A stretch of DNA of 64,000 nt from a bacterium (lineage in GTDB: Bacteria > Patescibacteriota > Patescibacteriia > 2-01-FULL-39-33). Below the pieces are notes generated by a model. It saw nothing but the letters and a program-made list of their open reading frames with translations. It was not told where the DNA came from and searched no databases. The DNA is taken from NCBI GenBank assembly GCA_029558735.1, contig JAKQDP010000047.1:209-64208 (forward strand), in the 5' to 3' direction. Below are positions 41,377 through 60,786 of this stretch, one piece after another; the stretch's first letter is position 1; each line of letters begins with the position of its first letter. The position numbers and the translations under genes were made by a program.

Positions 41377-41380
41377 AGGC

Positions 41381-41477: not shown

Positions 41478-41529
41478 GTCGGGTGTAACCCGCGACCGAA
41501 ACAATTTTAACAATCAATTATCAATTTAT

Positions 41530-43098: not shown

Positions 43099-43101
43099 AA
43101 G

Positions 43102-44493
43102 CTATTTACTTTTCTCAATCAAACCCTCAACAAATTGTTTAGCTTCTTCCAACTTTTCTTTTGACTCTCTTTTTTCTTTCAAAGATAATTTGATTAACTT
43201 TTCAATCTCTTTGCTTTTATCACTCTTAGACAATTTCAATAAATCTTTTGGAATTTTTATTTTTTTAACATCTTTGGGATATAAGTGAGAGGTTTGTCCT
43301 TTAACCTGCCTTTGTATAAGCTCATAGCCAACCTGCGAACGCATAAACAAAAGTAATACATAAGGGTTAATATCCGTCTTGGCTTTTATTGTTATTATTT
43401 CCGCCACTGTAAAAACTTTTTTAAATTCATCTGGTATATAATCAACAATATCAATCTTACTGCCGATATAACTGGCTTGGTGAGCGGCACAACCCAAAAC
43501 AATATTATCTTGCTCCAATGAGTTTTTATATTTATTGGAAATTTCCTCTTTAACAAAACCTCGCTCCTCATTCTCCCAATCAATGCCATTGCCTCTTATA
43601 GCTCTAAACTTCATAATTCTATTGCCACTCTCAACATAATCATCAAAGGCGGGAGTTTTACCAATTAAAACATCTGCCACATCACCCAATAAAATAAACT
43701 CATTTGGATTTTTTTCGTATTCATTTTCAAAATAGAAAAACGGGTCAATCCTATCTAATATATTTATTTCATTATTCCACTTAACAAATGATTTTTCCTT
43801 TTTGGAAATGTCTAAATATTTATTCAGCTCTTTATTAAAAATATCAACTGTTTTTTGATAATTATCTTTTGACTTTTCTAATAAACTCCAATAAATTTCT
43901 ATTATTTCTTTTACCTTTTCTTTTTCACTTGATTTTAATTCTGGCAATGTAATATTTCTAAAAAAATTCAAATCTAAAAATGGTCTTGTGCCAGCGTGAG
44001 CCATTATCTCAATTTTTTCTTTAAATAGGTTAGTTTTCAAAAAGGCATATAAAAAATAAACATTTAATTCATTTTTTGTTCTTAAAATCATTGCATTCTG
44101 GTTCATCAGTATTTTAGGGATAACTCTTGGCATTAAAAAACATTTCCCAACAGTATTGCCTGTAACAGTTATAACTATATCAAGAGGTTTAATTCTAAAA
44201 TTGGAATATTTATCCCAAAAACCATTATCAACCATTGCCAATCCATTAAAATCAATAACATCATCTATGTCTGATACTCTAAAAATACCAATCTCTCCAT
44301 TTGGTAAATAATCGGTGCTTTTAAACGCAAAACCCTTTATATAATCAGCAAAATCAAAAACATTATTATTTGAATATTTACTGGTATTTTGTTTTTCTGG
44401 GTCGTAAAAAGAAGTATCGCCTCTTTTAGTAAAATCAATCTGATAATTCCAAAGAATAAAACAATTATTTGTTTTTACATTTTCCTTTACCAT
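43102..44493 (-). CDS. HsdS-like specificity subunit (two target-recognition domains); candidate B subunit of a BcgI-like type IIB system
   Basis: 463 aa with duplicated TRD architecture. It overlaps the A-subunit gene by 7 nt. Confidence 0.7.
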   Translation of the reverse strand: MVKENVKTNNCFILWNYQIDFTKRGDTSFYDPEKQNTSKYSNNNVFDFADYIKGFAFKSTDYLPNGEIGIFRVSDIDDVIDFNGLAMVDNGFWDKYSNFRIKPLDIVITVTGNTVGKCFLMPRVIPKILMNQNAMILRTKNELNVYFLYAFLKTNLFKEKIEIMAHAGTRPFLDLNFFRNITLPELKSSEKEKVKEIIEIYWSLLEKSKDNYQKTVDIFNKELNKYLDISKKEKSFVKWNNEINILDRIDPFFYFENEYEKNPNEFILLGDVADVLIGKTPAFDDYVESGNRIMKFRAIRGNGIDWENEERGFVKEEISNKYKNSLEQDNIVLGCAAHQASYIGSKIDIVDYIPDEFKKVFTVAEIITIKAKTDINPYVLLLFMRSQVGYELIQRQVKGQTSHLYPKDVKKIKIPKDLLKLSKSDKSKEIEKLIKLSLKEKRESKEKLEEAKQFVEGLIEKSK

Positions 44494-46430
44494 AAATAAC
44501 TCTTATATTGTTTTTTAAACTTATCCCATTCCTTCAAAATCTCTGGGACATCAGTGTCCAAAGCTCCTTGCATTTCAACCAAAAGCGGGTCTTGTTTTGT
44601 TTTCTTACCTTTCTTATCGGTTAAATATTCAATCGGTCTATCCTCCCAATCAACCACTTCGCCCTTATTGTTTCGCTTATAGGTTTTTCTGCCTCTAATG
44701 TCATATCCTATTCTTTCTATATTGGCAAAAAATATCGGGTATTTTTCTGGGAGCTTGCCGTCTTTCGGCTTTTTAATAAATAGCACACTTGATTTTACTC
44801 CCGCTCCAAACGGGACAAAAGTTTCCTGAGGCAAACTAACAACTGAAATAATCTGCACTTTATCTTTTAGCCAAGCCCTTACAAACTCGGTATTCTGATT
44901 AGTTAAATCGCCGTCTGGCAAAACTATCGCCATTCTGCCACCCTCTTTAAGCAGTCCAATACACCGCTCAATAAACAAAATATCTGGCACTTGTCCGCCC
45001 CCTTTCTTGCCTGCCAATAATTTGCCTTTCTCAAATTCACCAGTCGCTTTATCTTTTTTCCAAGTATAGCCAAAATCATAATCAGCTAAAATATTTTGGT
45101 CTGACACTTTTCCTTTTGAGCCAAAAGGCGGGTTGGTCATTATAATATCAATGCTTTCTCTGGTAATTGTTTGATTAGTATTTTTACCCAGCTCGGAATA
45201 AGGAATAAGAGCATTGGAAGTCCAAATCCCAGTGTGTCCGTCATCAATCATTACCATATACATCTTGGCGACCTTAGTTAAATCATTATCAAAATCAATG
45301 CCTTTTATATGAGTAGTCGCATATTCTTTGATATTTCCTCTTAAAATTTCCCTTTGGTCTTTTGTTAGTTCACTGTCTTTAATTGGATTGCCATTTTCAT
45401 CAAGCCAGCCACGCTGTTTTTTAACCAAGTCCCTAAAATAATTAACCGCAAACACCAAAAAGCCAGATGACCCACAAGCTGGGTCAAGCACAACCTCGTC
45501 TGGTTCTGGCTCTAACATTTCAACAACAAGTTTTTTAATCGGGTCGGGAGTAAAAAATTGCCCAGCGTCTCCCCGAAAATATGCTCCCAAGAAAGATTGA
45601 AATGCCTCACCCTTAATATCGGTATCTAAGATTGTTATATTTTCAAACTCACGGACAACATTAGCAATCTGCCTTGTTGGTATTTCTATTTTTTCACTGC
45701 CGTCAAATATGTCTTTAAATTCTTGTCGGCTTTTTGCCTCATTAAATAAATCAAAAACTCTATTTTCAAATGCTTTACTTTTTCCAGTAGCTAAAATATC
45801 GTCCCATTCTCTATCATAAATAACAAATTTACATTCTTTATCAAAACTTTTTTCATCTTGTATTTTGGCAAACAAAAGATAAATTACTTGATAAAAAACC
45901 TTTGCCTTATTGCCTGCTTTATAATTGGCGTAAATATCGTTGTGTATGCGGTCAAATTTGGCTTGTAGATTGCTTGACGGTCGCAAATCTTTTTTCATTA
46001 TCTTTTTATCGCCGTATTGCTCACCATAGCGGGGGAGATTGGCTTTTTCTTCATATCGGTCTGGCTCTTTTAGTCTTTTCCAATATTTAATTTCCAAGCC
46101 GTTTGTCCAAACTCCAATTTGAGCGGTAGTAGAATTTACATAACCCTTTAATTGTGGCTCGCCGTCTGGGAGTTTAGCGTCTGGCTCTTTGCACTCAACT
46201 ATAATATAGTGATTTTCTCGTCTGTCCTTATCTTGTGGAGACGGATAAATAACAATATCAGCTCTTTTTTTATCGTCTCTGCCCATTTGGATTGGCACTT
46301 CCAAATCAATATTTTCTTTTGGATAGCCATACTCCTCAACAAGCTGACGAGCATATTCCTGCCTGACTTTTTCTTCTGGCGTTTCGGTTATTTCCAAGCC
46401 CCTTATATAACAAGTAATTTTATTTGCCAT
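44487..46430 (-). CDS. Fused PD-(D/E)xK nuclease-like N-domain and N6-adenine gamma-class methyltransferase (BcgI A-subunit-like)
   Basis: N-terminus has D…IVECK (PD-D/ExK). MTase motif I VVLDPACGSSGFL; motif IV TNPPFG. Confidence 0.75.
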   Translation of the reverse strand: MANKITCYIRGLEITETPEEKVRQEYARQLVEEYGYPKENIDLEVPIQMGRDDKKRADIVIYPSPQDKDRRENHYIIVECKEPDAKLPDGEPQLKGYVNSTTAQIGVWTNGLEIKYWKRLKEPDRYEEKANLPRYGEQYGDKKIMKKDLRPSSNLQAKFDRIHNDIYANYKAGNKAKVFYQVIYLLFAKIQDEKSFDKECKFVIYDREWDDILATGKSKAFENRVFDLFNEAKSRQEFKDIFDGSEKIEIPTRQIANVVREFENITILDTDIKGEAFQSFLGAYFRGDAGQFFTPDPIKKLVVEMLEPEPDEVVLDPACGSSGFLVFAVNYFRDLVKKQRGWLDENGNPIKDSELTKDQREILRGNIKEYATTHIKGIDFDNDLTKVAKMYMVMIDDGHTGIWTSNALIPYSELGKNTNQTITRESIDIIMTNPPFGSKGKVSDQNILADYDFGYTWKKDKATGEFEKGKLLAGKKGGGQVPDILFIERCIGLLKEGGRMAIVLPDGDLTNQNTEFVRAWLKDKVQIISVVSLPQETFVPFGAGVKSSVLFIKKPKDGKLPEKYPIFFANIERIGYDIRGRKTYKRNNKGEVVDWEDRPIEYLTDKKGKKTKQDPLLVEMQGALDTDVPEILKEWDKFKKQYKSYLW

Positions 46431-46437
46431 AGTTTTA

Positions 46438-46623
46438 TTATTTAGTTTCTACTTTATTTAAAAAATTATTAAATTCATTCTCATCAATCCTAAACTCTTT
46501 GCCAATTTTATATGCCCTAACCTTACCCGCCTTTATATAGCGGTATATAGTCATATTTGATACTCGCAGTTTTTCTGCTAATTCTTCAACGAGATAAAAA
46601 TCTTTTTTATTTTTTTGTGTCAT
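46438..46623 (-). CDS. Excisionase-family HTH DNA-binding protein (Xis-like, or a controller protein)
   Basis: 61 aa, FYLVEELAEKLRVSNMTIYRYIKAGKVRAYKIGKEFRI (HTH_17-type). Confidence 0.7.
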   Translation of the reverse strand: MTQKNKKDFYLVEELAEKLRVSNMTIYRYIKAGKVRAYKIGKEFRIDENEFNNFLNKVETK

Positions 46624-47003
46624 AGTATAGTTCCCTCTGTTTTAGCTTTTTTAATTAACTTATCAAAATCAGCTTTTGGTATAAGCGGACAAAACTGTCC
46701 CCATCTCCATTTACCGTCAGCTCCGTTAATTTTCCCAACTATGTAATAACCAATTCTATATTCAATATCACCCTTTTTCCAACCTTTATAAGCTATTTTG
46801 CCCTCAATTTTTTCCTTTCTTAATCTTTCAATAATAAAAACTTTTTTATCAAGATTATGCTGAGGCATAAGAGTTATTGCTTCTTTTACAAAATAAAATC
46901 TGCCTTCCCTGCCAATATCTTTCATTCCAATCAGTTTATCTTTTTGCTTTTCAAATTGCTCTTTTTTCCTTTTGATAAATTGTTGAGCCGTTTCCGTTTT
47001 CAT
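46620..47003 (-). CDS. Hypothetical protein (127 aa), cargo gene
   Basis: ORF track; ATGA overlap with the downstream HTH gene. No recognisable motif. Confidence 0.55.
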   Translation of the reverse strand: MKTETAQQFIKRKKEQFEKQKDKLIGMKDIGREGRFYFVKEAITLMPQHNLDKKVFIIERLRKEKIEGKIAYKGWKKGDIEYRIGYYIVGKINGADGKWRWGQFCPLIPKADFDKLIKKAKTEGTIL

Positions 47004-47005
47004 TT

Positions 47006-47539
47006 TTAATATTTATATAAATTTTTGAAATTATCTTTGTTTAACATCTCTCTATGCATTGCAAAAAACACCTTGTCCATTTCTCTGGGAGTAATATTAT
47101 ATTTTTTTGCTAACCCTCTCATTGTCTTTAAATATTCAATCCAATTATTAACCGACATATTATTTGATAATTTAAAACCAAGTTTTTTTAACATTTCAAC
47201 ACATCTTATATCAATTATTGCATATCGCTCTGGAAAAACAACAGTTAATATCGCAGAGGCAGTCGGTATACCAACGCCAGACAAGGAACATAACAATTCT
47301 ATTTTTTTACTCTCATCATTCTCCCTAAAAGCCAATTTTGAAATTGATTTTATACTATCTTTATTTTTTAAATAATTCGGCTTTTGCCTGTTTGACTTCC
47401 ACATCGCAATAGCAAAAAAATCATCAAAATCTAAATAACCCTTTCTTTTTACTTGCTTGCCAATATTATTAAATAAAAAATATTCCAAATCATAAAACTC
47501 CAAATATTTTTTAATTTCTTGTTTTGTGAGCTTTTTCAT
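47006..47539 (-). CDS. HhH-GPD superfamily (DNA glycosylase-like) small protein, cargo gene
   Basis: LSGVGIPTASAILTVVFPERYAIIDIRCVEML parallels endonuclease III LPGVGRKTANVVL…IAVDTHIFRV (helix-hairpin-helix plus Asp). No Lys is present at the lyase position. Confidence 0.5.
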   Translation of the reverse strand: MKKLTKQEIKKYLEFYDLEYFLFNNIGKQVKRKGYLDFDDFFAIAMWKSNRQKPNYLKNKDSIKSISKLAFRENDESKKIELLCSLSGVGIPTASAILTVVFPERYAIIDIRCVEMLKKLGFKLSNNMSVNNWIEYLKTMRGLAKKYNITPREMDKVFFAMHREMLNKDNFKNLYKY

Positions 47540-47597
47540 TTTTAGTATTTATACTGAGGTAATGCTATGTTAGCATTATACCTCATTTAACAATAGT

Positions 47598-48764
47598 TTA
47601 CAACTGGATTTGGCTTTGTCTTGGTTTTATGATATTAAATTGCTCGTGTTCTGCCTTTAAAAAAGCGACTAAATTCGGTAATTTACCGTCTATATTGGGT
47701 AATTCTGCCAGTGCCAAAGCTATCTCATTTTTAATCCTCGCTATGCTCCCACCTTTGTAGTTTTCTTTTATCATTTCCCATACAGATTTTATACCAAATT
47801 TGGTAGTCATACCCACCCAATAATACAGTTCAATTTGCTTTTTATGGCTTAAACCCGACTTATCCAAATAAACTAACAACTCATTATCTTTCATTTCCGA
47901 TAATCCCACCAATCCAATAGCAGTATTATCAAAAACACTATTGAAATTATCCAGTAAAATTTGCTTAGCTAAATTACTATTTAATACATCTTTAAGTATT
48001 AAATCTTTCTTCATTTTTCCCTCCAATCTCTTACCGACTACCGACTCTAAACTTCTTTTATTTTGAATAGCCAACTCAAATTTTACCGCACTTCTTTTTT
48101 GATTTTTATTAAACTGCTCTATCAGATTTTTTTCATAATCAGTATATCCTCGCTGTAAAAGCTCGCCAATTTTATCGTATATAACATAGCCCTGAGTGGT
48201 ATTCCAAAACTTTACCCCAACACCATTATCACCTCTATCAAAATATCTATTTAAGTTAAAATCAGAGCTGGGCTTATAGTTAAATTGAGATAACTTTATT
48301 ATTACCTGTGGGGCTTTACCAAGATAAGGCGGTAATATAATAATTTTAGAAAAATCCACCCTTTTTAATATTGCCCCCTCAATACTACTAATGTCTGTAT
48401 TTATGCCCGCCTCTTGTAAATAAGCCACTGTTGTCTTATTTATCTTGTTATAATCAGACTCATCTATCTCTAATAAACTTGTTCCATAAACCGCCTTTGG
48501 AAGTGAGATTTGGATTTCCAGTGTTTCCTTTTCTTCTTGATTGCCAGATTTTCTTATTGGTCTTTTTATATAAGGAAAGTATCTTCCATTTTTATGCTGG
48601 CTTTGTGAATACTCCCAACTGTCCGCCGTGCCAACAAAAAATCCCTTTCCGCCACTGCTTCGCTTACTATATAGCTTATGGCTATCTTGTATTTTATACT
48701 GCCCAGCTTTAAGCTCCCAAACAATACTATCAATCATAACTTGCCCTCCTCCTCTAATCGCCAT
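47598..48764 (-). CDS. Hypothetical protein (388 aa), first gene of the cargo operon
   Basis: ORF track. Low-GC codon usage matching the element. No motif recognised. Confidence 0.55.
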   Translation of the reverse strand: MAIRGGGQVMIDSIVWELKAGQYKIQDSHKLYSKRSSGGKGFFVGTADSWEYSQSQHKNGRYFPYIKRPIRKSGNQEEKETLEIQISLPKAVYGTSLLEIDESDYNKINKTTVAYLQEAGINTDISSIEGAILKRVDFSKIIILPPYLGKAPQVIIKLSQFNYKPSSDFNLNRYFDRGDNGVGVKFWNTTQGYVIYDKIGELLQRGYTDYEKNLIEQFNKNQKRSAVKFELAIQNKRSLESVVGKRLEGKMKKDLILKDVLNSNLAKQILLDNFNSVFDNTAIGLVGLSEMKDNELLVYLDKSGLSHKKQIELYYWVGMTTKFGIKSVWEMIKENYKGGSIARIKNEIALALAELPNIDGKLPNLVAFLKAEHEQFNIIKPRQSQIQL

Positions 48765-49049
48765 TTTATTTTTTGTAATGTGCTATAAAATCCCAACAAG
48801 TTATATCTCGCCTCAAACACCTCCTCCTCTTTTAAATCAAACGCCTCAACGAGTCCTTTTCGTTCAAGCTCATCTATTTTATTGTCCATAAACCATAAAA
48901 TCTCCGCAAATACGCAGAGACTTTATGAGACAATACCATTTATTGTCATTTGGACAATTTTATGATATAATAAACTTGCAGTTAGTTTACGCATAAATCT
49001 TGCGTGAATTTGCACAAAAACCCCTGTTTCCGCAGGCGGTTTTTGCTTT

Positions 49050-49688
49050 TTATATTGTTATTGTTATTCCACATTCTTTTAATCGGTAGCTGGCGGATTG
49101 CTCGGATACTTGAAATTCATCAGCCAAAACCGAAATACTTTTTACTTCCTTAAATTTTTTAATAAAATAATCCTGTGGCATTAAATACATAGCCGTTGCC
49201 TTATCTGTTGATTTTTCAAATAATTTTAAAACAACTTCTGGGGGCAATGTTGAATTGCACAACAATTCGTCAAAATAATTCTGAAATCCAACATCAAGCG
49301 ACTGAATAAAATGCATTGTCTCGTGTATCTTAGTAAATCTTTGTCTTTTGAGCGGAGTCGCTATATCATAAAATATTGTTATCTCACCAGTTTCCTCATC
49401 TAACTCCCAATAACCATCTCTTGTCTCTAAAAAACCATTAAAACCTTGATAACTTATTGTATAACCAGATAAATAATTAACGATTAAATCCGTGTCCATT
49501 GGCAAGGAAATGCCATTTGGGGCGGTTTTTATTATATCGTTAATCAATCTTTTACTATAAGCAACTAATTTATTTAACTCCTGATAATATATACCTTTGC
49601 AATCCGCTGGTATTCCGTCATTATAAGACTGCCTAAGCCAATACAGATTGTCTATTACATTAGAGCTCTTTCTTGATATACTTAGCAT
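49050..49688 (-). CDS. ImmA/IrrE-family metallopeptidase
   Basis: HEXXH motif HETMHF. Overlaps the upstream XRE gene, an ImmR/ImmA-like arrangement. Confidence 0.7.
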   Translation of the reverse strand: MLSISRKSSNVIDNLYWLRQSYNDGIPADCKGIYYQELNKLVAYSKRLINDIIKTAPNGISLPMDTDLIVNYLSGYTISYQGFNGFLETRDGYWELDEETGEITIFYDIATPLKRQRFTKIHETMHFIQSLDVGFQNYFDELLCNSTLPPEVVLKLFEKSTDKATAMYLMPQDYFIKKFKEVKSISVLADEFQVSEQSASYRLKECGITITI

Positions 49689-50061
49689 ATTTCAAAACAT
49701 TATTTATCTGTTCTGGCGTATAGCCGTTGCTCCTTAATGCCTGACTTATCATCTGAAAACTTGGCTTGGCTTTATTATCTAATATTCCAAGCTCCTCCAA
49801 AAAATCTTTTAAAGTCATATCAAAGGCGTCTGCCAGTTTCTTACAAGTCATCAAAGAAAGAGATTTGAAATCACCCTCCTTTAATTTAAAGATAAAAGCA
49901 GGGGAAAGTTCCGACCTTTCTGCTAAATCACTCCAAGAGAGATTTGATTGTTGCCTTAGTTTTTCAATTGTGTTTACTATGTTTTTCATAGGTTTTTGTT
50001 TATATGGTAGATATATCACCCACCTACTATCCATTATATACCTTATTTTCACTTTTGTCAA
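49660..50061 (-). CDS. XRE-family HTH transcriptional regulator (ImmR-like)
   Basis: IEKLRQQSNLSWSDLAERSELSPAFIFKLKEG HTH_3 pattern. The start is probably the internal Met (MKNIV…). Confidence 0.7.
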   Translation of the reverse strand: MTKVKIRYIMDSRWVIYLPYKQKPMKNIVNTIEKLRQQSNLSWSDLAERSELSPAFIFKLKEGDFKSLSLMTCKKLADAFDMTLKDFLEELGILDNKAKPSFQMISQALRSNGYTPEQINNVLKYAKYIKKEL

Positions 50062-50189
50062 TAGTATTTTTCACGATAGTGAAATATTACCGCATAGCCA
50101 AAAAATAGTCAAGTTTTTTTAATTCAACGCCAAAACTACCGACTATCTCTACCCAGTTTAGAGTTCTAAAATCGTCCCGTAGCCCCCGC

Positions 50190-50232
50190 TTAAACAAAAT
50201 AGCCCGAATTTATTCCGGGCTATTTTGTTTAT
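50190..50232. terminator. Strong 15-bp perfect hairpin at the AT-rich / GC-rich boundary
   Basis: AAACAAAATAGCCCG-aatttattc-CGGGCTATTTTGTTT. Confidence 0.7.
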
Positions 50233-50348
50233 AGATGATTAAAACAAAGGGACTTGAACTTGCCTGCTGGAAAGCAGGCGGGTGGCTGATTTTGCAAATA
50301 AAAAACGGTATACCAATTTATCAAAAATTGATATACCGTGTACTCATA

Positions 50349-51163
50349 CTAGTTCATCAGCCGATCCAGCGCCCAGCACCAATCCTTGACGCCGCCGGTG
50401 GTGAGTTGGGCATGCAATAATAGCGCCTTCTTGCCATTGATAATCATCGCCTCATTGGCATAATAATCAAAGGCAGCGCTAAAGGGATCTTGATGATGAT
50501 TAAGATCAGTCACCACCGCGGCATGAGCCCCGTGCTGGCAAGCTTCCAAAAGCAAGAACAGCCCATAGGGTATGTCCAGGCCGATATGCTTGGCGATCCC
50601 AGCTTCGCCCAGAGCGCCATCAGTGGCGACCGGCAAATGCAAATCAAGCAGGGCGTAAGCAAACTGACGCTCCCTTAACGCCAGCCGCGCCTGATCAAAC
50701 CCTTCGGCCACGACCAGATTGAAATTGCCCAGTTGATTCTTGGCCGCTTGCTGATTCTCTGGCTTGTCATCGACCACAAGGATCCAGGGCAGGCCCGGCT
50801 TTTCCGCTGAGACGGCCGATTCCACCACCGAAATCGCAACCTCAGTCTCTTCCTCCAGTTTGATTCCGGAAGAAATCCGCAACAATTCCACCAGACAATC
50901 ACTGATATCCACCTTAACAAAATTCGGCAAATCCGGCAGACTTGTTTCTGCCGGCTGGCCATAATCCAAAAGAACATACTGTTTGTCTTCGCGGTATTTT
51001 TCCGCTAATTTTTGACCTTATCAATAATAATCAAATCAGCTTCCTGAAAATCCGCCACCACTTCCGCTTCCGCCAACAAAACGGTCAGTACTGTCTGGAG
51101 TGCCACATTCACCGGCTGATTTGGTTTTTCGCCGCAATCAGTATAGATTCGCAATTTTCTCAT
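50349..51163 (-). pseudogene. Response-regulator receiver (REC) domain protein apparently split by a 1-nt frameshift in a T-run (50997-51001). Parts: 51005..51163 (N-terminal, REC-like) and 50349..50969 (REC plus C-terminal domain).
   Basis: The upstream part (MRKLRIY…AEAEVVADFQEADLIIIDKVKN*, SD AAAGGAG 8 nt before the ATG) stops at 51005. The downstream frame is open from 51017 and continues …KLAEKYREDKQYVLLDYGQPAE…LPWILVVDDKPENQ…ALLDLHLP. The two frames are offset by 1 at the T5 run. Confidence 0.45.
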
Positions 51164-51325
51164 TTTAAAGAGCTCCTTTTGTTGTTTAACCAATCTTCTA
51201 AATAAAAACCATAGCAAAAAACAATTATTTTGTCAATAATTTTATCCAAATAAAAAACCGCCCCAAAGCTTAATTCGCTCTGGGGCGTCAGTCAATATTT
51301 TGGGCAATTAGTCCCGAAGTGCCGG

Positions 51326-52177
51326 CTAAGCGACGGCTTCTTTAGAAGAGACGCTGTCAGTAATGTTAAGTGCCGACTGAATCATCTTGACGCCCTGTTC
51401 AAACAAGGCGCTGTCAATAAACGGCTGGTCATCATCAACCAATTCTTCCTGACGTCTGACCACCAAATCATCAGCGACCGTTTTCGGCCGAAGCGCCAAG
51501 TCCTTGATTAACTGACAGACATTTTTGGAACCGATAATCGTCTCGATCTCCTGTTCAATCGATTCTACTGCCTGCTCCTGCCGAGCCAATTCAGCCAGTC
51601 GGCTGATTAGTTCAGCCAGGCGCTGGTCGATGAACTGGCGATAATCAATGCCGCTACCCGACATCATCACTGCCAAGGCAACATGGATATCGCCAACATT
51701 AAGCCGCTTCTCCACTTCTTCCGGATTCTCCGAGCCTCGCAGCAGTAAATTGTGCTTGCGAAAAGCGCGATCAGCAATAACCGCCGCCGCATGAACTCGG
51801 CCACTAAACCGCTCCTTCAATTGAGCAACCTGATAAATGCTGGCATCCGCCACCAATAGATCCGCATCGGCCACATCAAAGGCATTGGCGGTGTAGCCGT
51901 AGCGACTGCCATTGCTCTCCAATACATAATGGGCAAAAATATCGCCACTAGCCAACCCTTGATCAAATTCCTCGGGGCTGATGCATTTCTTGGTGACTTC
52001 CACCACCCCTGGCCGACCGGGTCGGTCAGTGGTCTTGACCACGATTTTCACATTCAGATTGTCACGGCCAAGGCGCCGGCACACTTCGCGAAGCGCCTGC
52101 TCCTCCAAAATTTTGTCCAAGAGATAATCTCGGCCGGTGGCCGAAGCGCCGGGAATCAGAAGAATTGGTTTTTCCAT
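51326..52177 (-). CDS. Guanylate-kinase-like protein with a degenerate P-loop (GASATGRD) and a C-terminal coiled coil
   Basis: Alignable to Gmk: TTDRPGRPG ~ TTRQPRPGE; CISPEEF ~ FVNHDEF; GSRYGYT ~ GNYYGT; LLLRGSENPEEVEKRL ~ RLRGRGQDSEEVIAKRM. The Walker A Lys/Ser is replaced (GxSxTGRD). Confidence 0.6.
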   Translation of the reverse strand: MEKPILLIPGASATGRDYLLDKILEEQALREVCRRLGRDNLNVKIVVKTTDRPGRPGVVEVTKKCISPEEFDQGLASGDIFAHYVLESNGSRYGYTANAFDVADADLLVADASIYQVAQLKERFSGRVHAAAVIADRAFRKHNLLLRGSENPEEVEKRLNVGDIHVALAVMMSGSGIDYRQFIDQRLAELISRLAELARQEQAVESIEQEIETIIGSKNVCQLIKDLALRPKTVADDLVVRRQEELVDDDQPFIDSALFEQGVKMIQSALNITDSVSSKEAVA

Positions 52178-52327
52178 GATACTTGTTCCTTATTGTTTAT
52201 TCCGCCACCCACCTTGATTGGCAGATTAAATGATTGTAACAAAATAATTACTGAAGGTCAACCAAATAACTTGTTAATTTTAAAAGCCGCGAAAAAATAA
52301 CTTCTCGCGGCTAAGTCACCTTGCTCC

Positions 52328-52639
52328 TTAATCTATTGGCAGATCATTATTATCAGCCAATTTAACAACCAACAGATCAGTCAGCAACTCCAAAACGGCC
52401 CAAACCTGTTCCGCCACTGGAGTGGCCGTGATCGGCTTACCGGTTTTTTTGTCGGTAATCCAAATGGCCTGTCGACTGTTTTTATGAAAAATATTCTTGG
52501 CCGAACCCACCGCCTCAAATCCATTCTGATTAATCAAAAACAGCCAGGCGATGTCATAGGTAACCGGCCCAATCAATTGATTAAACACCTCTCGACCGCC
52601 AGTCTCCCCCCACATTCGAATCATATAAAAGTCGCTCAT
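52328..52639 (-). CDS. Roadblock/LC7-like small protein (about 103 aa from the Met at 52639)
   Basis: SD AGGAGG precedes the ATG at 52637-52639. AWLFLINQNGFEAVGSAKN resembles the roadblock core (cf. MglB VFLVDKNGQLISSAGQT). Confidence 0.5.
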   Translation of the reverse strand: MSDFYMIRMWGETGGREVFNQLIGPVTYDIAWLFLINQNGFEAVGSAKNIFHKNSRQAIWITDKKTGKPITATPVAEQVWAVLELLTDLLVVKLADNNDLPID

Positions 52640-52852
52640 TTTTCTCCTCCTATCGGCCCCATTGCCGATATCATAATTTAACAGATAAAAGGTCACCGGT
52701 CAATCCTTCCCGTCGCCTCTGCAAAAAATCGCTTTTTTTGTTATAATCAAGAAAGCCCAAACCAAGCAATGCCAGCCGACCAAAACCGCCTTAAATATTA
52801 ATTAGCGAATTGGCGGCTCTCAGTCAAAACCTAACAACTTAAATAATTAGCT

Positions 52853-53695
52853 ATGAAAAAAAATTATCTCTGGCTGGGACCAATCATAGTTTTAGCCCTC
52901 GCGCTCGCAATTATTATTTTCCTGCGTCTTACCTCACCCGAAGATACTTGGCTGTGCCAAGACGGCCAATGGGTCAAGCACGGCCAACCGACCGAAGCAG
53001 CACCGGCAACCGGCTGCGGTGATATCGCCGATCGCGACCTGACTAATGACGACTCAGCTGAACGCTGTCTTAACGGCGGCGGCGACTGGCTGGCTGATTA
53101 CCAGGAATGCGAAAATATTTCCCGAGATTTATGCGAAGAATTGGACGGCCGCTTTAATGATTGCGCCTCGGCCTGCCGCCACAACCCCGAAGCTGAATTC
53201 TGCACTATGCAATGCGTAGCGATTTGCCAGCTTAGCTCCACCAACACAAATATTAATAGCTTCGCTGCTTGCGTCCAGGCCGGTAATCCGGTTCAAGAAA
53301 GTTACCCGCGTCAATGCCAGGCCGGCAACCAGACTTTTATCGAGAATATTGGCAATGAATTGGATAAATCAGATCTTATCCGGTTGGACTCGCCCCGTCC
53401 CAACCAAATGATCAATAGCCCGCTTACCATCACCGGTCAAGCGCGCGGGTCATGGTTTTTTGAAGCGTCATTCCCAGTCATTCTGACCGACTGGGATGGT
53501 AAAATCATCGCTCAAACCATAGCCACCGCCCAAGGCGACTGGATGACTGAAGATTTTGTCCCTTTTAGCGCCACTGTGGAATTTGACCGGCCGGCTGCTG
53601 GTCAAAACGGCAGTCTAATTCTCCAAAAAGACAATCCCTCCGGCCTGTCCGAATATGACGACGCCCTGGAAGTCCCGGTCTTATTTGCGGAATAA
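52853..53695 (+). CDS. Secreted Cys-rich protein with a C-terminal Gmad2-like immunoglobulin-like domain
   Basis: N-terminal signal/TM, many Cys residues, and a C-terminus (SPLTITGQARGSWFFEASFPVILTDWDGKIIAQ…DWMTEDFVPFSATVEF) that is Gmad2-like. Confidence 0.6.
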   Translation: MKKNYLWLGPIIVLALALAIIIFLRLTSPEDTWLCQDGQWVKHGQPTEAAPATGCGDIADRDLTNDDSAERCLNGGGDWLADYQECENISRDLCEELDGRFNDCASACRHNPEAEFCTMQCVAICQLSSTNTNINSFAACVQAGNPVQESYPRQCQAGNQTFIENIGNELDKSDLIRLDSPRPNQMINSPLTITGQARGSWFFEASFPVILTDWDGKIIAQTIATAQGDWMTEDFVPFSATVEFDRPAAGQNGSLILQKDNPSGLSEYDDALEVPVLFAE

Positions 53696-53734
53696 AAATA
53701 ATCCGCTTGAAAATAAATAAAAAACCGCGGCAAC

Positions 53735-53768
53735 AAAAAAATAAAAAAGGCTCGACCGCTGTCGAGCC
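53735..53768 (-). terminator. Minus-strand rho-independent terminator
   Basis: GGCTCGAC-cgct-GTCGAGCC stem with the T-run on the minus strand (the A-run at 53735-53748 on the plus strand). Confidence 0.6.
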
Positions 53769-53786
53769 CAAACGATAATGAGAATA

Positions 53787-53996
53787 CTAGTTGCCCCGAT
53801 AGGTGGGGCGATGACCAGAGCGCCTTCTGGTTATTCCCGGAGAACTTTCCTCATCCCCTTCGTCCACTGCCATCGGCCGACCAATTTCTTCGACGCCACG
53901 ACGCCGCAACGCTCGACAGAATTTGAAGGCCGAATCTTTGTCCGCCAAATGCTTGACCCGCTGTTCTCCGTTCTCACAGAAGGGTACTGCTACCAT
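53787..53996 (-). CDS. Hypothetical small protein (69 aa) in a GC-rich spacer
   Basis: ATG at 53994-53996 preceded by SD AAGGAG (8-nt spacer): MVAVPFCENGEQRVKHLADKDSAFKFCRALRRRGVEEIGRPMAVDEGDEESSPGITRRRSGHRPTYRGN. A minus-strand terminator lies just downstream. Confidence 0.4.
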   Translation of the reverse strand: MVAVPFCENGEQRVKHLADKDSAFKFCRALRRRGVEEIGRPMAVDEGDEESSPGITRRRSGHRPTYRGN

Positions 53997-54153
53997 AGTC
54001 CCTGCTCCTTCGCTTGTTTTTTCCCACCAACCTCTTAATCTTCCCAGTTGATCGGAATTCCAAACGGCGGAGCGCGTTCCCCTAATGGTTTCAATGAACC
54101 TCCTCCCTAAGTACAACACCTAAAAATAAGTCTAACACAAAAACCGTCAAAAG

Positions 54154-54190
54154 TCAAAAAAACCGTCCCGAATACTCGGGCCGGGTTTTT
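54154..54190. terminator. Bidirectional terminator (serves ppsA on the minus strand)
   Basis: A7 run, CCGTCCCGA-atac-TCGGGCCGG hairpin, T5 run. Confidence 0.75.
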
Positions 54191-54212
54191 AACTTTATAG
54201 ACTTTTGACTTA

Positions 54213-56603
54213 TTATTTATATTTTCTCCTTCCCTTCACCTTCTTCTCCTGAGTCAAAACCGCCAAAGTGGTTTTAACCACCGTATCAGGCACAAGAGAC
54301 ATGCTGTCTATACCCTCGCGCACCAAAAACTGGGCAAAATCAGGAAAGTCCGACGGCGCTTGACCACAAATGCCGATTTTGCGTTTTTTCTTTTTGGCCA
54401 CCTTGATGACTTGGGCGATTAAATTTTTGACCGCCTGATTTTTTTCATTATAAATATGAGCGACCAATTCCGAATCCCTGTCCACCCCCAACGCCAACTG
54501 GGTCAGATCGTTAGAGCCGATGGAAAAGCCGTCAAAAATTTCAGCAAACTGCTCGGCCAGAATGACATTGGCTGGAATTTCGCACATCACATACACTTCC
54601 AACCCCTCTTTGCCCCGTTTCAAGCCATGTTGTTCCATTATTTTTATCACTCGCTTGCCTTCTTCAATAGTTCGGCAAAAGGGAATCATAATTTTAATAT
54701 TCTTCAAGCCGAATTCCTCGCGCGCCTTTTTGAGCGCCTGGCACTCCAATTCAAACGCCGCTTTGTATTTATCGGCATAATAACGCGAAGCACCGCGCCA
54801 GCCGATCATCGGATTGGGCTCTAATGGCTCAAACTCATCGCCGCCGATCAAATTAGCGTATTCATTAGACTTAAAATCAGACAAGCGAATAATAACCTCC
54901 TTGGGATAAAAAGCGGCGGCAATCATGCCCACCCCCTCAGCCAATTTATCAACGAAAAAATCCGGCTTATTCTGGTGATTAACTGTCAGCCATTCTATTT
55001 TTCTCTTGGTTGTCGCTTTCTTGATTTTGGCAAAATTAATCAATGATAATGGATGGACTTGGATATAATTGGAAATAATAAATTCTTCGCGAGCCAGCCC
55101 CACGCCGTCATTAGGAATAAAAGTAAAGGACAAGGCGGCATAGGGATTGCCAACATTCATCATAATCTTAGTTTTCGGTCGGGGCAATTTTTTCAGATTG
55201 GTTTTCTTGATGCTGTATTTTAATAGCCCGCCATACACTTTGCCGATTTCACCTTCGGCGCAAGACACCGTCAGCTCTTTGCCGTTTTTTAGTTCCTTAC
55301 TGGCCCGACCGGTGCCGACCACGCAAGGTACGCCCAGTTCGCGTGACACTATGGCGGCATGACACGTTCTCCCTCCGCTGTCGGTAATAATGGCCGCCGC
55401 TTTTTTCATCACCGGCTCCCAATCCGGATCAGTCATTGGCGCCACCAATACCTCACCCTCTTTAAAAGTCTTGAGCTGATTGACATTTTTGATTACTCGC
55501 GCCTTGCCTTGGCCGATTTTCATCCCGACACTATCGCCAACAAACAACACCTTGCCGCCGGCAGCAATTTTGTACTCCTCCAGTACATTCAGATTTCTCT
55601 GCGAGCCGACTGTCTCCGGCCGCGCCTGAACAATGAACAATTTGTTTGTTCGGCCATCTTTAGCCCATTCAATATCCATCGGCCGTTTATAATGCTTTTC
55701 AATAATCATCGCCCACTTGGCCAATTGGAGTATTTCTTTATCGGACAGAGCATACCGACGCCGCAATTTTTTATCCACCAGCACCGATTTGGTCGGCTCC
55801 CCGGCCTTGTTGTTGTAAATTAGCTTCTTAATTTTGTCCCCGGCTTGACGAGAAATAATCGGCCGGTAACCGGTGGCCAAAGTTTTTTTGAAAACATAAT
55901 ATTCATCCGGGTTGACTACTCCCTTGACCACATATTCGCCTAGACCATAAGCGGCGTTAATCAGTATCACATTGTCATTGCCGCTTTCCGTATCAATAGT
56001 AAACATCACCCCCGAAGTGGCCAAATCCGACCGAATCATTTTTTGGACGCAAACCGACAGATAAACTTTCTTATGATTGAACCCCTGATCCATCCGATAC
56101 GATATCGCCCGATCAGTAAACAGCGAAGCAAAACATTTCTTAACCGCCGCTAACAGCTCCTCTCCCCCGACAACATTAAGATAAGATTCCTGTTGGCCGG
56201 CAAATGAAGCGTTGGGCAAATCCTCAGCCGTCGCCGAAGATCGCACCGCCACGTCAGTATTTTGGGTTTTATAATTGACAGATAATTTCTTATAGGCAGT
56301 GATAATCTGTTCTTGAAGATCGTCTGGCAACTCAGCCGCTAAAATAAGCTGGCGAATTTTGGAGCCGCGGTCACTCAAGTTATCCTTATTAATCCCCTTT
56401 AGTAAAGCAAAAATCGCCGGCCGAATTTTTGCCCGGTCCAAAAAATAATTGTAAGCGCCGGCGGTAATGGCAAAGCCATTGGGCAAGGCTACGCCCTTAA
56501 TCGTCAACCGGCGATACATTTCGCCCAAAGAAGCGTTCTTGCCGCCGACCCTAGGGACATCCTGAATGCCAATTTCTTTGAACCAAAGAATATTTTTGGA
56601 CAT
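54213..56603 (-). CDS. ppsA: Phosphoenolpyruvate synthase (pyruvate, water dikinase)
   Basis: N-terminus IQDVPRVGGKNASLGEM, a phospho-His domain and a PEP-utilising C-terminus; 796 aa. Confidence 0.92.
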   Translation of the reverse strand: MSKNILWFKEIGIQDVPRVGGKNASLGEMYRRLTIKGVALPNGFAITAGAYNYFLDRAKIRPAIFALLKGINKDNLSDRGSKIRQLILAAELPDDLQEQIITAYKKLSVNYKTQNTDVAVRSSATAEDLPNASFAGQQESYLNVVGGEELLAAVKKCFASLFTDRAISYRMDQGFNHKKVYLSVCVQKMIRSDLATSGVMFTIDTESGNDNVILINAAYGLGEYVVKGVVNPDEYYVFKKTLATGYRPIISRQAGDKIKKLIYNNKAGEPTKSVLVDKKLRRRYALSDKEILQLAKWAMIIEKHYKRPMDIEWAKDGRTNKLFIVQARPETVGSQRNLNVLEEYKIAAGGKVLFVGDSVGMKIGQGKARVIKNVNQLKTFKEGEVLVAPMTDPDWEPVMKKAAAIITDSGGRTCHAAIVSRELGVPCVVGTGRASKELKNGKELTVSCAEGEIGKVYGGLLKYSIKKTNLKKLPRPKTKIMMNVGNPYAALSFTFIPNDGVGLAREEFIISNYIQVHPLSLINFAKIKKATTKRKIEWLTVNHQNKPDFFVDKLAEGVGMIAAAFYPKEVIIRLSDFKSNEYANLIGGDEFEPLEPNPMIGWRGASRYYADKYKAAFELECQALKKAREEFGLKNIKIMIPFCRTIEEGKRVIKIMEQHGLKRGKEGLEVYVMCEIPANVILAEQFAEIFDGFSIGSNDLTQLALGVDRDSELVAHIYNEKNQAVKNLIAQVIKVAKKKKRKIGICGQAPSDFPDFAQFLVREGIDSMSLVPDTVVKTTLAVLTQEKKVKGRRKYK

Positions 56604-56654
56604 ATTTTTGATGATTAGCTTTTTGGTTATTTAGCTGCTTAGCTTATTAGAGAA

Positions 56655-57017
56655 TTACAAAGTGTTAATTATTTTATTTAACAACCTCATTACCTCATTT
56701 AATAAATCGTCAACAATTTTAAAATCCAAATCAACACTAAACTGCAAACGCCTGATAATTTCAATCTGTGTTTCCAGCTCTGCTCCGGATGAATAAGCGA
56801 TAAATAAAAAATGACGAAATTCGTTTTTACCGCATCTTCTCCTACCTTCGGCTATATTGGAAGGAATCGATACAGCCGAGCGCCGCATTTGAGAAGTCAA
56901 GTTATAAGTTTCCGATGAAGGAAATTTTTCGGTTATATTATAAATAGCAATCACTAAGTCCATGGCTTTCTGCCAAACAATCAAATCTTTGTAGCTATTA
57001 ATCATATTCCTATACAA
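56655..57017 (-). CDS. Four-helix-bundle protein (23S rRNA intervening-sequence protein family)
   Basis: DLIVWQKAMDLV…SQMRRSAVSIPSNIAEG… is the characteristic sequence. Confidence 0.75.
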   Translation of the reverse strand: MYRNMINSYKDLIVWQKAMDLVIAIYNITEKFPSSETYNLTSQMRRSAVSIPSNIAEGRRRCGKNEFRHFLFIAYSSGAELETQIEIIRRLQFSVDLDFKIVDDLLNEVMRLLNKIINTL

Positions 57018-57056
57018 ACAAACTAAGTAGCTAACAAACTAAGTAGCTAACAAGCT
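57018..57056. repeat. Short tandem repeat (AAACTAAGTAGCTAACA x2 plus a partial copy)
   Basis: Visible direct repetition in the ppsA-pyk spacer region. Confidence 0.6.
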
Positions 57057-57060
57057 AACT

Positions 57061-58563
57061 TCACACCTCCTCCACTTTAATTAGATTAGTTTGGCCCTTA
57101 AAGCCAAAGGGATGACCGGCCACTACGATCACTGTGTCGCCCTTAACTGCCAACTTCTTATCCAATAATAATTTTTTTATTTTCGCCAACAATGAATTAA
57201 AGGAGGCGGTAAATTTGATCAGGTGAGCTTCCACGCCCCAACTCAAACTGAGCTGATTGACAGTCATCATGGCCGGAGCAATGGCGATAATCGGCACCTC
57301 CGAACGAAAACGAGAAATATTTCTGGCAGTAAACCCCGAGGTGGTCGCGCAGACAATCAGCTTAGCATGAGCGACATCCTCGGCCAAGTCTTGGGCGACA
57401 AAACTCATTATTTGAGTAATGGAACTTAAATTCTTAAATTCGCCCTCTTTGACTTCTTGTTCATCGATTAAGCGACCCTCTACTTCCCGAGCAATCCGAC
57501 TCATTACCCGGACCGCCTTGAGCGGATATTTGCCGGTGGCAGTTTCCCCGGAAAGCATAATCGCGTCAGTGCCATCCAAAATAGCATTGGCCACATCCGA
57601 TACCTCGGCCCGAGTCGGGAGCGGATTCCTAATCATCGAATCCAGCATTTGGGTGGCGACAATCACTTGTTTGCCGGCTTTGCGGCACTTATCAATAATA
57701 TTTTTCTGAATTAGCGGCAAATCCTCAAACGGCACCTCAATGCCCAAATCGCCGCGCGCGACCATAATGCCATCAGCCGCTTCCAAAATTGAGTCAATAT
57801 TTTTGACCGCTTCCCGCCGTTCAATCTTGGCGATAATGCGCGTGTGGATACCGCCGATCTTGCCCTTGGCCGCCGGCTTCTCCAACTTAAAACCATAACT
57901 GGCGCTGTTTTTCCAATATTTTTTTTCCAAAGCAAAAATCCGCCGCCGCAATTTGATAACGTCTTCCGCCGCCTTAACAAATGACAAAGCCACAAAATCC
58001 ACCTTATTTTTAATACCAAATTCCAAATCTTGCCAATCTTTAGCGGTAATCGGCGGACACTTGATGGTTGATTGGGGAAAATTCATTCCCTTATGCGTTT
58101 TAATGACCCCGCCAGTGACCACCCGGCAACAGATCGCCCGATTCTTGATTCGCTCTATTTTCAATTCAATGACAGCATCATCAATCAATATTGACTGACC
58201 GACTTTGACCTCTTTGTACAAATTCGGATATTGAATGGGGATATACAAACTCAGCGCCTTGATTGGCACCACATAATTTTCCGGCACCAAAAACAGCTCC
58301 GCCCCTTTTTCTACAGTAATCCCCTCCGGCGCCACATCGCCGATGCGAATCCGCGGTCCCTGCAAGTCTTGCAAAACTGCAATGCTCCGATTACCTTTTT
58401 TAGCCACGGCCCGCAAGTTGTTGATGAGCAATTGATGGTGGTCATAACTGCCATGGGAAAAATTAAGCCGGGCCACATTCATTCCCGCGGTAATCATTTT
58501 TTCCATCATGGTTTTGGTTTCCGATACCGGACCAATCGTCGCGACAATTTTTGTCTTTTTCAT
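57061..58563 (-). CDS. pyk: Pyruvate kinase
   Basis: MKKTKIVATIGPVSE…NVARLNFSHG…; 500 aa. Confidence 0.92.
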   Translation of the reverse strand: MKKTKIVATIGPVSETKTMMEKMITAGMNVARLNFSHGSYDHHQLLINNLRAVAKKGNRSIAVLQDLQGPRIRIGDVAPEGITVEKGAELFLVPENYVVPIKALSLYIPIQYPNLYKEVKVGQSILIDDAVIELKIERIKNRAICCRVVTGGVIKTHKGMNFPQSTIKCPPITAKDWQDLEFGIKNKVDFVALSFVKAAEDVIKLRRRIFALEKKYWKNSASYGFKLEKPAAKGKIGGIHTRIIAKIERREAVKNIDSILEAADGIMVARGDLGIEVPFEDLPLIQKNIIDKCRKAGKQVIVATQMLDSMIRNPLPTRAEVSDVANAILDGTDAIMLSGETATGKYPLKAVRVMSRIAREVEGRLIDEQEVKEGEFKNLSSITQIMSFVAQDLAEDVAHAKLIVCATTSGFTARNISRFRSEVPIIAIAPAMMTVNQLSLSWGVEAHLIKFTASFNSLLAKIKKLLLDKKLAVKGDTVIVVAGHPFGFKGQTNLIKVEEV

Positions 58564-58584
58564 TAAATTTGTTTATGGGCTTAA

Positions 58585-58908
58585 TTACAACTTGATTGTT
58601 TTGGCCACCCAATTGCCAAAGGTCTTAGCCGTCTCCGCCAAAAGCGGCAGCTCCCATTTCTCGCCTTGCAATGATTTGATAATACCGGCAATGCAAGCAA
58701 CGGCGATTAAAAGATTTACAAACCAACCAACCAGCGGAATGAAAATAAACGGGATGGAAAGCGCAAACAGCAATAAGCCCTGATTGGCATGAAAGCGGAC
58801 AAAATTATTATTTTTCCGCGCCGCCAAAACGACCAGGCTCAACACCCATAAATAGCTGCTCGCTCCCCAAATTTTTTCTTCGACCGAAGGTTTTTTTGTC
58901 TCCGCCAT
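58585..58908 (-). CDS. Small membrane protein (DUF4870-like)
   Basis: 107 aa, two or three TM helices (…WGASSYLWVLSLVVLAARKNNNFVRFHANQGLLLF…). Confidence 0.55.
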   Translation of the reverse strand: MAETKKPSVEEKIWGASSYLWVLSLVVLAARKNNNFVRFHANQGLLLFALSIPFIFIPLVGWFVNLLIAVACIAGIIKSLQGEKWELPLLAETAKTFGNWVAKTIKL

Positions 58909-59045
58909 AAAATTTTAAGTTATTTTTATTTTTTAAAACTCAAAATATTTTTTATCACTAGAGTCTTCATACCTGCCCTCCTCATGAAAGAGCCCTCTCT
59001 ATTTTCCCCCTCCTTTAGAAGGAGGGGGGTAGGGGGAGGTTATCC

Positions 59046-59567: not shown

Positions 59568-59744
59568 TCGCTAAAACCTCAAGCGCCGCTTTTTTTAGTT
59601 AGTTTGGCAAACAAAAAAACAACCAGCCCGACTGCCCAAAAAACCAGGCCTGTCTCTCTCGCCTATTTTTACTATTAATAGCTATAGAGAGCGCCAACTC
59701 TAATGGCCTTCTTTTCGCTTGATTAAAAACCAGGCCAACCTAAA

Positions 59745-59777
59745 ATCTCCCTCCCGATTACTCGGAAGGGAGGTTTT
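59745..59777 (-). terminator. Terminator of the RRM gene (also A-run/T-run bidirectional)
   Basis: CTCCCTCCCGA-ttac-TCGGAAGGGAG stem flanked by A/T runs. Confidence 0.7.
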
Positions 59778-59790
59778 TAGTTGTCAGATA

Positions 59791-60731: not shown

Positions 60732-60786
60732 AAAATAATTTTAATATTTAATTTAATATAATTATACCAAAAATAAAAACGGGCAG

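Follow-up and report, generated by a model that had tools for sequence, protein, structure and literature searches.

Three neighbouring genes in a Patescibacteria genome

In this study, we analysed a 64,000-nucleotide stretch of contig JAKQDP010000047.1 from a member of the Patescibacteriota, hereafter called the window, and focused on a block at positions 50230-52700 that contains three open reading frames (ORFs), all on the minus strand. They encode a small protein of 103 amino acids (aa), here called orf103, a 283-aa protein resembling guanylate kinase (GK), and a receiver-like protein whose gene is frameshifted. The original prediction had presented the block as a horizontally acquired signalling system made of a Roadblock/LC7-like protein, a GK-like partner and a receiver protein. 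Our results show that the three genes are not parts of one signalling system. They are separate native genes, and the GK-like protein is probably an active phosphotransferase that uses a substrate other than GMP and is coupled to the phosphoenolpyruvate (PEP) node of lower glycolysis. The features of the block, in the direction of transcription, are listed below; the promoter-like and terminator-like sites are consensus matches, not proof of function.

52703-52675, minus strand: weaker promoter-like site
52646-52651, minus strand: AGGAGG Shine-Dalgarno sequence of orf103, six nt before the ATG, read directly
52328-52639, minus strand: orf103, ORF of 103 aa
52286-52311, minus strand: terminator-like GC-rich hairpin followed by TTTT after orf103 (GCCGCGA...TCGCGGC TTTTA), read directly; not listed by the terminator scan, its loop being longer than 8 nt
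52233-52261, minus strand: promoter-like site upstream of the GK-like gene (TTGACC-17-TACAAT, extended TG)
51326-52177, minus strand: ORF of the 283-aa GK-fold protein (G-R-D clade, see below)
52127-52150, minus strand: Walker A codons, G10-A-S-A-T-G-R16-D17, with Arg in place of the canonical Lys
51259-51287, minus strand: intrinsic-terminator-like hairpin after the GK-like gene (11 pairs, 8 GC, T-run)
51208-51236, minus strand: promoter-like site of the receiver-like gene (TTGACA-17-TATGGT)
50349-51162, minus strand: receiver-like gene, frameshifted; its family consists of orphan response regulators of 271 aa (receiver preceded by an N-terminal alpha/beta domain)
51009-51013, minus strand: A5 run, site of a 1-nt deletion, with a premature TAG at 51007-51005
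50305-50339, minus strand: terminator-like hairpin after the receiver-like gene

The 283-aa protein as a member of the guanylate kinase superfamily

The 283-aa ORF contains GASATGRD (residues 10-17), TTDRPGRPG, EEF, GSRYGYT and LLLRGSENPEEVEKRL, exactly the motifs from which a GK-like protein with an atypical Walker A had been predicted. No Pfam match to PF00625 (Guanylate_kin) was found at E < 0.1. The best NCBIfam match was PhnN (TIGR02322; E = 1.6e-6, 28 bits against a cut-off of 156 bits), and the NCBIfam gmk models matched at E = 8e-4 (19.1 and 16.6 bits against cut-offs of 318 and 263). When the PDB sequences were searched with the single protein and with the profile A1, an alignment of eight members of the family, GKs came out on top, but only at E = 0.08-0.5. 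Since these sequence-only matches are weak, homology was established by profile-profile and structure comparison. Alignment of A1 by hhalign with A3, an alignment in which 13 of 14 sequences match PF00625, gave a probability of 99.8% (E = 1.4e-28, 151 columns). An AF2 model built on the family alignment reached a pLDDT of 89.5 and a pTM of 0.87, and its top 50 PDB matches in Foldseek were all guanylate kinases (E of about 1e-10). The core, NMP-binding (nucleoside monophosphate-binding) and LID domains of the GK fold are all predicted in the model, and its secondary-structure map places the extra length in a three-helix insert of about 60 residues (about 175-235) between the LID helix and the last strand. 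Judged by predicted fold and by profile-profile homology, the 283-aa protein belongs to the guanylate kinase superfamily, as had been predicted. PSRP/DUF299, the PEP synthase regulator, was also considered as its identity and was ruled out, the fold being clearly that of a GK.

GASATGRD departs from the canonical Walker A, GxxGxGK[ST]. In A1, residues S12, A13, G15, R16 and D17 are invariant, and the G-R-D is found in all members of the core clade (A1 plus P0030-P0036), whereas the more distant relatives (P0038-P0051), mostly of about 290 aa, have GK followed by S, T, D or E. In every member of this clade, which we call the G-R-D clade, the Walker A takes the form G-x-x-x-x-G-R-D, Lys being replaced by Arg and Ser/Thr by Asp. 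Since the G-R-D is invariant within the clade while Lys occurs in the more distant relatives, the Arg is a fixed, derived character of a clade that is under purifying selection.

Active-site residues were mapped by a low-scoring HMMER alignment to yeast GK, and the roles given below are those that we take the yeast residues to have.

Walker A: yeast K14 and S15; family R16 and D17
Phosphate binding: yeast R38 and R41; family R52 and R55, past a one-residue insertion at D51
Phosphate binding: yeast Y78; family Y93
Walker-B-like: yeast D98; family D111
LID: yeast R131, R135 and R146; family R140, R147 and R158
Guanine contacts: yeast S34, E69, S80 and D100; family K48, A82, Y95 and S113, all replaced (provisional, low-scoring alignment)

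R140, R158, D111 and R52/R55 are invariant among the eight aligned sequences, the members of which are 35-50% identical, and R147 is present in all but one. The earlier description of the P-loop as crippled is not borne out, the G-R-D being invariant throughout the clade and the LID and phosphate-binding arginines being conserved. On this low-scoring alignment, the phosphoryl-transfer apparatus looks preserved and base recognition does not.

Rarity and genomic neighbourhood of the G-R-D clade

The GK-like family is rare, with nine word-index matches among 5.8 billion proteins and, among 1.84 billion cluster representatives, 53 representatives at E ≤ 1e-3, 16 of which are at E ≤ 1e-30. It is present in six of 185,579 species genomes; the titles of five of these name Saccharibacteria, Paceibacterota, Andersenbacteria or the Patescibacteria group, and the sixth is an unclassified 'bacterium' metagenome-assembled genome (MAG). 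As judged from the homologues, the window is placed in Patescibacteria indirectly, through the taxonomy of the MAGs that bear them. Among the homologues named by JGI, one is called guanylate kinase and two are called PhnN. A literature search yielded no description of this family, nor of natural kinases with an Arg Walker A. From this distribution of sequences, the G-R-D clade can be regarded as a rare, Patescibacteria-restricted branch of the guanylate kinase superfamily.

Clustering of the loci at 70% identity gave eight G-R-D lineages. In five or six of them, the enolase gene (eno) lies at most 1.7 kb from the GK-like gene, in five different arrangements, which are given below together with the layout of the window lineage (PK, pyruvate kinase; PPS, PEP synthase; IVP, 23S rRNA-intervening-sequence protein).

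eno->GK, same strand: L031 and L032 (gaps of 59-104 bp, called genes); L029, with enolase 0.9 kb upstream
GK->eno->PK, same strand: L020 and L024
GK and eno convergent: L009
PK<- GK-> MBL<- eno->: L001, L018 and L023
iPGM<- eno<- x<- S16-> GK->: L004
PK-IVP-PPS-x-Gmad2-orf103-GK: window lineage, with PPS at 2.0 kb and PK at 4.9 kb

We estimate that, in a genome of about a thousand genes, enolase would fall no more than two genes away from a given gene with a probability well under 1%. Given that the linkage to enolase has been kept through these rearrangements, and that the clade is repeatedly found beside enolase and PK, and beside PPS and PK in the window, we infer that its function is coupled to the PEP node. 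The small ORFs that flank GK-like homologues in other loci (L004, L007, L008 and L009) are unrelated to orf103 and to the receiver gene; one of them encodes ribosomal protein S16.

Fusions also bear on the chemistry of the family. The Lys-type relatives P0038, P0039 and P0053 carry a C-terminal NUDIX domain (E of 1e-17 to 1e-22), and the core G-R-D member P0030 (431 aa), which is encoded next to enolase in L031, has a weak HIT-like match at its C-terminus. These fusions point to nucleotide or sugar-phosphate chemistry. The single locus of a Lys-type NUDIX-fusion relative that was inspected (L033) has no glycolytic neighbour.

The genes from the block to PK in the window include the following.

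52853-53695: gene for a Gmad2-domain secreted protein, adjoining orf103
54213-56603, minus strand: PPS, 2 kb upstream of the GK-like gene
56655-57005: gene for a 23S rRNA-intervening-sequence protein, between PK and PPS (PF05635, E = 2.6e-36)
57061-58563, minus strand: PK, 4.9 kb upstream of the GK-like gene

A second copy of the 23S rRNA-intervening-sequence protein gene lies near the GK-like gene in L009, and Gmad2-like sequences were found within about 6-7 kb of the GK-like gene in three further lineages (L018, 14496-14828; L023, 15752-16084; L024, 183-383).

Transcription units and co-occurrence of the three genes

Each of the three genes has its own promoter-like and terminator-like sites, a sequence layout that marks them as separate genes rather than an operon. 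They are adjacent only in loci of the same species (L010-L013 and L017), and in L017 all three are intact, with products of 98, 283 and 271 aa. Neither orf103 nor the receiver gene was found around the GK-like homologues of other lineages (L001-L009 and L018-L032; more than 20 loci), and no GK-like gene was found around the receiver-like homologues (L014-L016). The original prediction had itself named a lack of co-occurrence elsewhere as a result that would refute it, and beyond the species the three genes are never adjacent. A PADLOC scan of the three proteins plus a 70-aa ORF gave no defence-system match, and Rfam scans of the block gave no riboswitch or leader.

orf103 as a species-restricted ORFan

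The predicted protein of about 103 aa, with its start at 52639 and an AGGAGG Shine-Dalgarno sequence, is indeed encoded at the locus. No resemblance to Roadblock/LC7 proteins was found. Neither the 103-aa version nor a 122-aa version of the sequence matched any Pfam family at E ≤ 0.1 or even at E ≤ 10, Roadblock (PF03259) included, and a phmmer search of the PDB with orf103 returned no Roadblock chain and nothing else of relevance. Among 5.8 billion proteins its sole match was itself, and by tblastn it was found only in the same-species loci L010-L013 and L017. The AF2 model, made from the single sequence as there were no homologues to align, was too poor to be used (pLDDT of 41), and the Foldseek search with it, which found nothing below E = 2.6, carries no information on the fold. 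orf103 is probably a real gene, as suggested by its Shine-Dalgarno sequence, by its codon-position GC of 0.49/0.35/0.51, which is similar to that of the native PPS and PK genes, and by its freedom from indels even in the error-rich L013 assembly. On the basis of these searches, we classify it as a species-restricted ORFan.

A frameshifted orphan receiver gene

That a receiver gene follows the GK-like gene was correctly predicted as far as the family is concerned, which is supported by PF00072 and by the DD, D, T and K residues. It is not a simple gene, being a frameshifted copy of a family of 271 aa. In the window it is split in two, leaving pieces of 52 aa (51162-51005) and 206 aa (50969-50349), whereas its homologues have about 270 aa. 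At the site of the deletion, the intact 271-aa homologue P0011, which is 97% identical, reads ...IIDKVKKLAEKYREDKQYVLLDYGQ... and the window reads GTC AAA AAT TAG. The run is A5 in the window, L010 and L011, and A6 in L013 and in L017/P0011. Near-identical strains thus differ in which gene is broken, this one or the GK-like gene (see Discussion), and such reciprocal frameshifts could stem either from genuine decay of the genes or from errors of assembly. We judged it unlikely that A5 is a site of programmed frameshifting or transcriptional slippage, the run being too short and no canonical slippery heptamer being present.

All 17 family members aligned in A2 (about 270 aa) matched PF00072 (E ≤ 0.01, best 1.8e-7), whereas the window copy scored 19.8 bits against a gathering score of 30.2 and covered only the N-terminal half of the profile. 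Residues D132, D133, D174, T219 and K260 (P0011 numbering) are invariant in A2 and correspond to D67, D68, D109, T154 and K195 of the 206-aa piece. Searching the PDB with the A2 profile gave receivers at E = 1.7e-8 to 1e-6, the best being the ABL+receiver structure of RcsC (2ayx, E = 1.7e-8), with an alignment that reaches into the N-terminal domain. These comparisons identify the family as an orphan receiver protein with an N-terminal alpha/beta domain. Its alignment to RcsC spans the N-terminal alpha/beta region as well as the receiver, and it keeps DD, D, T and K as RcsC and the stand-alone CheY-like receivers do; no RcsC-ABL Pfam match was obtained at E ≤ 0.01. The protein is stand-alone and lacks both kinase and output domains. 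Two features are not canonical for receivers: an insertion in the loop that follows beta3, and a VVTDLNHHxDPFSAAFD motif that is invariant and comes right after the conserved Thr. In two unrelated loci (L014, 1-606; L015, 1-779), a gene for an RsgA-type GTPase lies about 5-6 kb upstream of the receiver-like homologue, which may be a coincidence.

The block is native and adjoins an integrative element

The block had been described as about 60% GC and almost certainly horizontally acquired. Its measured GC content is 47.6%, no 500-nt window within it exceeds 53.4%, and the single genes have 44.9% (orf103), 51.9% (GK-like) and 50.9% (receiver-like). These values are close to the 46.7% of the native right flank (52701-64000), the entire window having 41.4%. 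The sharp GC jump noticed at the border of a low-GC island is real, with a step at about position 50186 from 33% to about 50%. GC at third codon positions (GC3) is 0.51-0.60 in the block genes, 0.53-0.54 in PPS and PK, and 0.32-0.37 in the island genes. The block is thus compositionally ordinary, and the low-GC neighbour is the anomalous part. Since the block genes resemble PPS and PK in codon-position GC and the island genes do not, the claim of acquisition fits the neighbour, not the block.

Comparison with L010, a same-species locus from the MAG GCA_035400025.1, gave the same picture. Positions 33083-41605 and 50186-62171 of the window are collinear with L010 at 99.6% and 98.7% identity, respectively, and these two segments abut directly in L010, where the block genes adjoin tRNA-Asp. 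The 8,580 bases between them (41606-50185, 33% GC) are missing from L010. At the base level, the empty site in L010 reads ...ggtccgc|ttaaacaaaa..., the left junction in the window, at the 3' end of tRNA-Asp, reads ...ggtccgc|caatcg..., and the right junction reads ...cccccgc|ttaaacaaaa.... A short CCGC microhomology is present at both junctions. The composition step is therefore explained by the insertion of a low-GC element at tRNA-Asp, with the following features.

41530-41607, plus strand: tRNA-Asp, whose 3' end is the integration site
41606-50185, no strand assigned: integrative element of 8.58 kb, 33% GC, absent from L010, junctions read
41566-43098: large serine recombinase (Resolvase+Recombinase+Zn_ribbon), beside tRNA-Asp, in the element
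44487-46430: HSDR_N+N6_Mtase protein, in the element
49050-50061: M78-peptidase/HTH pair, in the element

Further products of the element are two uncharacterised proteins of 463 and 388 aa and an Ogg-HhH-like protein of 177 aa. The block is present and syntenic in L010, L011, L012, L013 and L017. Of three hallmarks of an island (absence from close relatives, atypical composition and a mobility gene at the border), the block shows none and 41606-50185 shows all three. We conclude that the block, located between the PK/PPS cluster and tRNA-Asp, is native and that the foreign DNA is the 8.58-kb serine-recombinase element inserted at the 3' end of tRNA-Asp, which reverses the earlier reading.

Elsewhere in the window, the SmpB gene (39018-39482) is followed directly by tmRNA (39487-39875; 134 bits with Rfam, not reported by ARAGORN). 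The GC-richest part of the window (60787-63337, 55-63%) lies outside the block and codes for Ala/Pro/Gly-rich membrane or secreted proteins, in which no family was detected, beside a TrbC/type IV secretion system pilin gene. An abrupt fall in GC to about 32% occurs at about 63250.

Discussion

Taking the sequence, fold and neighbourhood data together, the reading that we favour, and hold to be somewhat better than an even bet, is that the three genes are separate and native, with no signalling system among them, and that the GK-like protein is an active phosphotransferase with a substrate other than GMP, coupled to the PEP node. The protein would phosphorylate an already phosphorylated substrate, for example another nucleotide or a sugar phosphate, and its function would be coupled to the PEP node of lower glycolysis. 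A plausible role would be the supply of a nucleoside diphosphate (NDP) or a phospho-intermediate to PEP-driven substrate-level phosphorylation. Several points weigh against this reading. Replacement of the Walker A Lys by Arg usually lowers phosphotransfer in engineered mutants, and the G-R-D clade could consist of binding proteins, not enzymes. The residue mapping comes from low-scoring sequence alignments rather than from superposed structures. Two lineages, the P0035-like clade (L021, L022, L025-L028 and L030) and L007/L019, have no glycolytic neighbour, and in the window itself three genes, one of them on the opposite strand, separate the GK-like gene from PPS. In addition, although the window and L017 have an intact GK-like gene, the copies in L010 and L011 lack one nucleotide (the G at 51815) and that in L012 is also frameshifted, which suggests either a dispensable gene or assembly error in these sibling strains.

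The most serious competitor concerns catalysis itself. The G-R-D protein might lack catalytic activity and act instead in ligand binding or regulation, as a sensor of a nucleotide or phospho-metabolite that modulates enolase or PK, comparable to the GK domains of MAGUK proteins. The loss of the canonical Walker Lys and Ser/Thr, the persistent gene linkage with enolase and PK, and the precedent of a GK turned into a binding protein (PDB 4f4j, by its title) would all be in keeping with such a role. Nevertheless, R140, R147, R158, D111 and R52/R55 are conserved in a manner typical of a catalytic site, and Arg and Asp may still contact phosphate and Mg2+. In keeping the LID and phosphate-binding arginines, the protein is much closer to true GKs than are the GK-like domains of the eukaryotic MAGUK proteins, which are non-catalytic scaffolds. 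We regard such a non-catalytic role as rather unlikely.

It is also unlikely, and a little more so, that the 283-aa protein is simply the divergent housekeeping guanylate kinase of the lineage (GMP + ATP -> GDP + ADP), with the PK linkage reflecting the path from NMP through NDP to nucleoside triphosphate. In favour of this, no other fold comes nearly as close as that of GK, the arginines of the LID and of phosphate binding are kept, one homologue is named guanylate kinase by JGI, and neither the 64-kb window nor the fetched loci gave a match to a canonical gmk by tblastn with E. coli Gmk and yeast GUK1, although this negative search covered genome fragments only, a small part of each genome. 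Unlike Gmk/GUK1 (PF00625), which has G-K-[ST], the protein has G-R-D, so that the Walker Lys is replaced; the positions that align with the guanine contacts are K48, A82, Y95 and S113; and it has the helical insert of about 60 residues. It falls below every Pfam and NCBIfam threshold, the Pfam Guanylate_kin model included, and is restricted to a few Patescibacteria. To our knowledge gmk is near-universal, whereas this family occurs in just the six species genomes mentioned above, and a frameshift in sibling strains would be unexpected for an essential gmk. Its linkage to enolase and PK differs from the typical neighbours of gmk. PhnN (ribose 1,5-bisphosphate phosphokinase, TIGR02322) is the best NCBIfam match, and E. 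coli PhnN presumably has Asp after its Walker Lys (GKD), as in D17 here. The protein differs from PhnN in its score far below the cut-off, in having Arg for the Walker Lys, in being about 100 residues longer and in its gene context, which is glycolytic without a phn operon. Failing the defining thresholds and motifs of both families, the protein appears from its sequence to be a variant within the superfamily that is neither Gmk nor PhnN.

A bolder version of the enzymatic reading, to which we give about as little credence as to the housekeeping kinase, is that the G-R-D clade represents a new class of P-loop phosphotransferase, with Arg serving in place of the Walker Lys, that carries out an as yet unassigned step feeding or draining the 2-phosphoglycerate/PEP node and forms a conserved functional unit with enolase and PK in the reduced genomes of Patescibacteria. 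Within this version, the candidate substrates of the kinase would include glycerate, ribose phosphate or ribose 1,5-bisphosphate, and an NMP with a base other than guanine, and the phosphoryl donor might be an unusual one.

The signalling module of the original prediction, a horizontally acquired system like MglB/MglA/RomR in which an atypical P-loop GK-like protein is the partner of Roadblock/LC7 and receiver proteins, now seems highly improbable. In its favour, the genes stand side by side on the same strand, all three are intact in the same-species L017, and the GK-fold and receiver identities were correct. However, the 103-aa protein has no Roadblock match at E ≤ 10 and no homologue beyond the species, the GK-like and receiver homologues are never neighbours beyond the species, promoter-like and terminator-like sites accompany each gene separately, the window copy of the receiver gene carries a frameshift, and the block is syntenic and native. 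In Myxococcus, MglB is a Roadblock-domain GTPase-activating protein for the Ras-like GTPase MglA, and RomR/RomX is the guanine nucleotide exchange factor (PMC9481161, PMC11016934), so that the target of MglB is a Ras-like GTPase, not a GK-fold kinase. The likeness to MglB-MglA-RomR is superficial and does not go beyond the side-by-side genes for a small protein, a P-loop protein and a receiver protein; the block has neither a Roadblock signal nor a Ras-like GTPase, its genes show no conserved co-occurrence, and they are not an operon.

In summary, the correction keeps a false Roadblock-GK-receiver system out of the record. What remains is an unannotated branch of the GK superfamily that seems to be restricted to Patescibacteria and to have a naturally fixed Lys-to-Arg change in its Walker A, and whose linkage to enolase, PK and PEP synthase has survived several rearrangements of gene order. 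Patescibacteria have a minimal and poorly understood central and nucleotide metabolism, and a conserved kinase-like partner of the PEP node would be a testable candidate for a missing or unusual metabolic step. The clade may also serve as a natural experiment on what an arginine P-loop is capable of.

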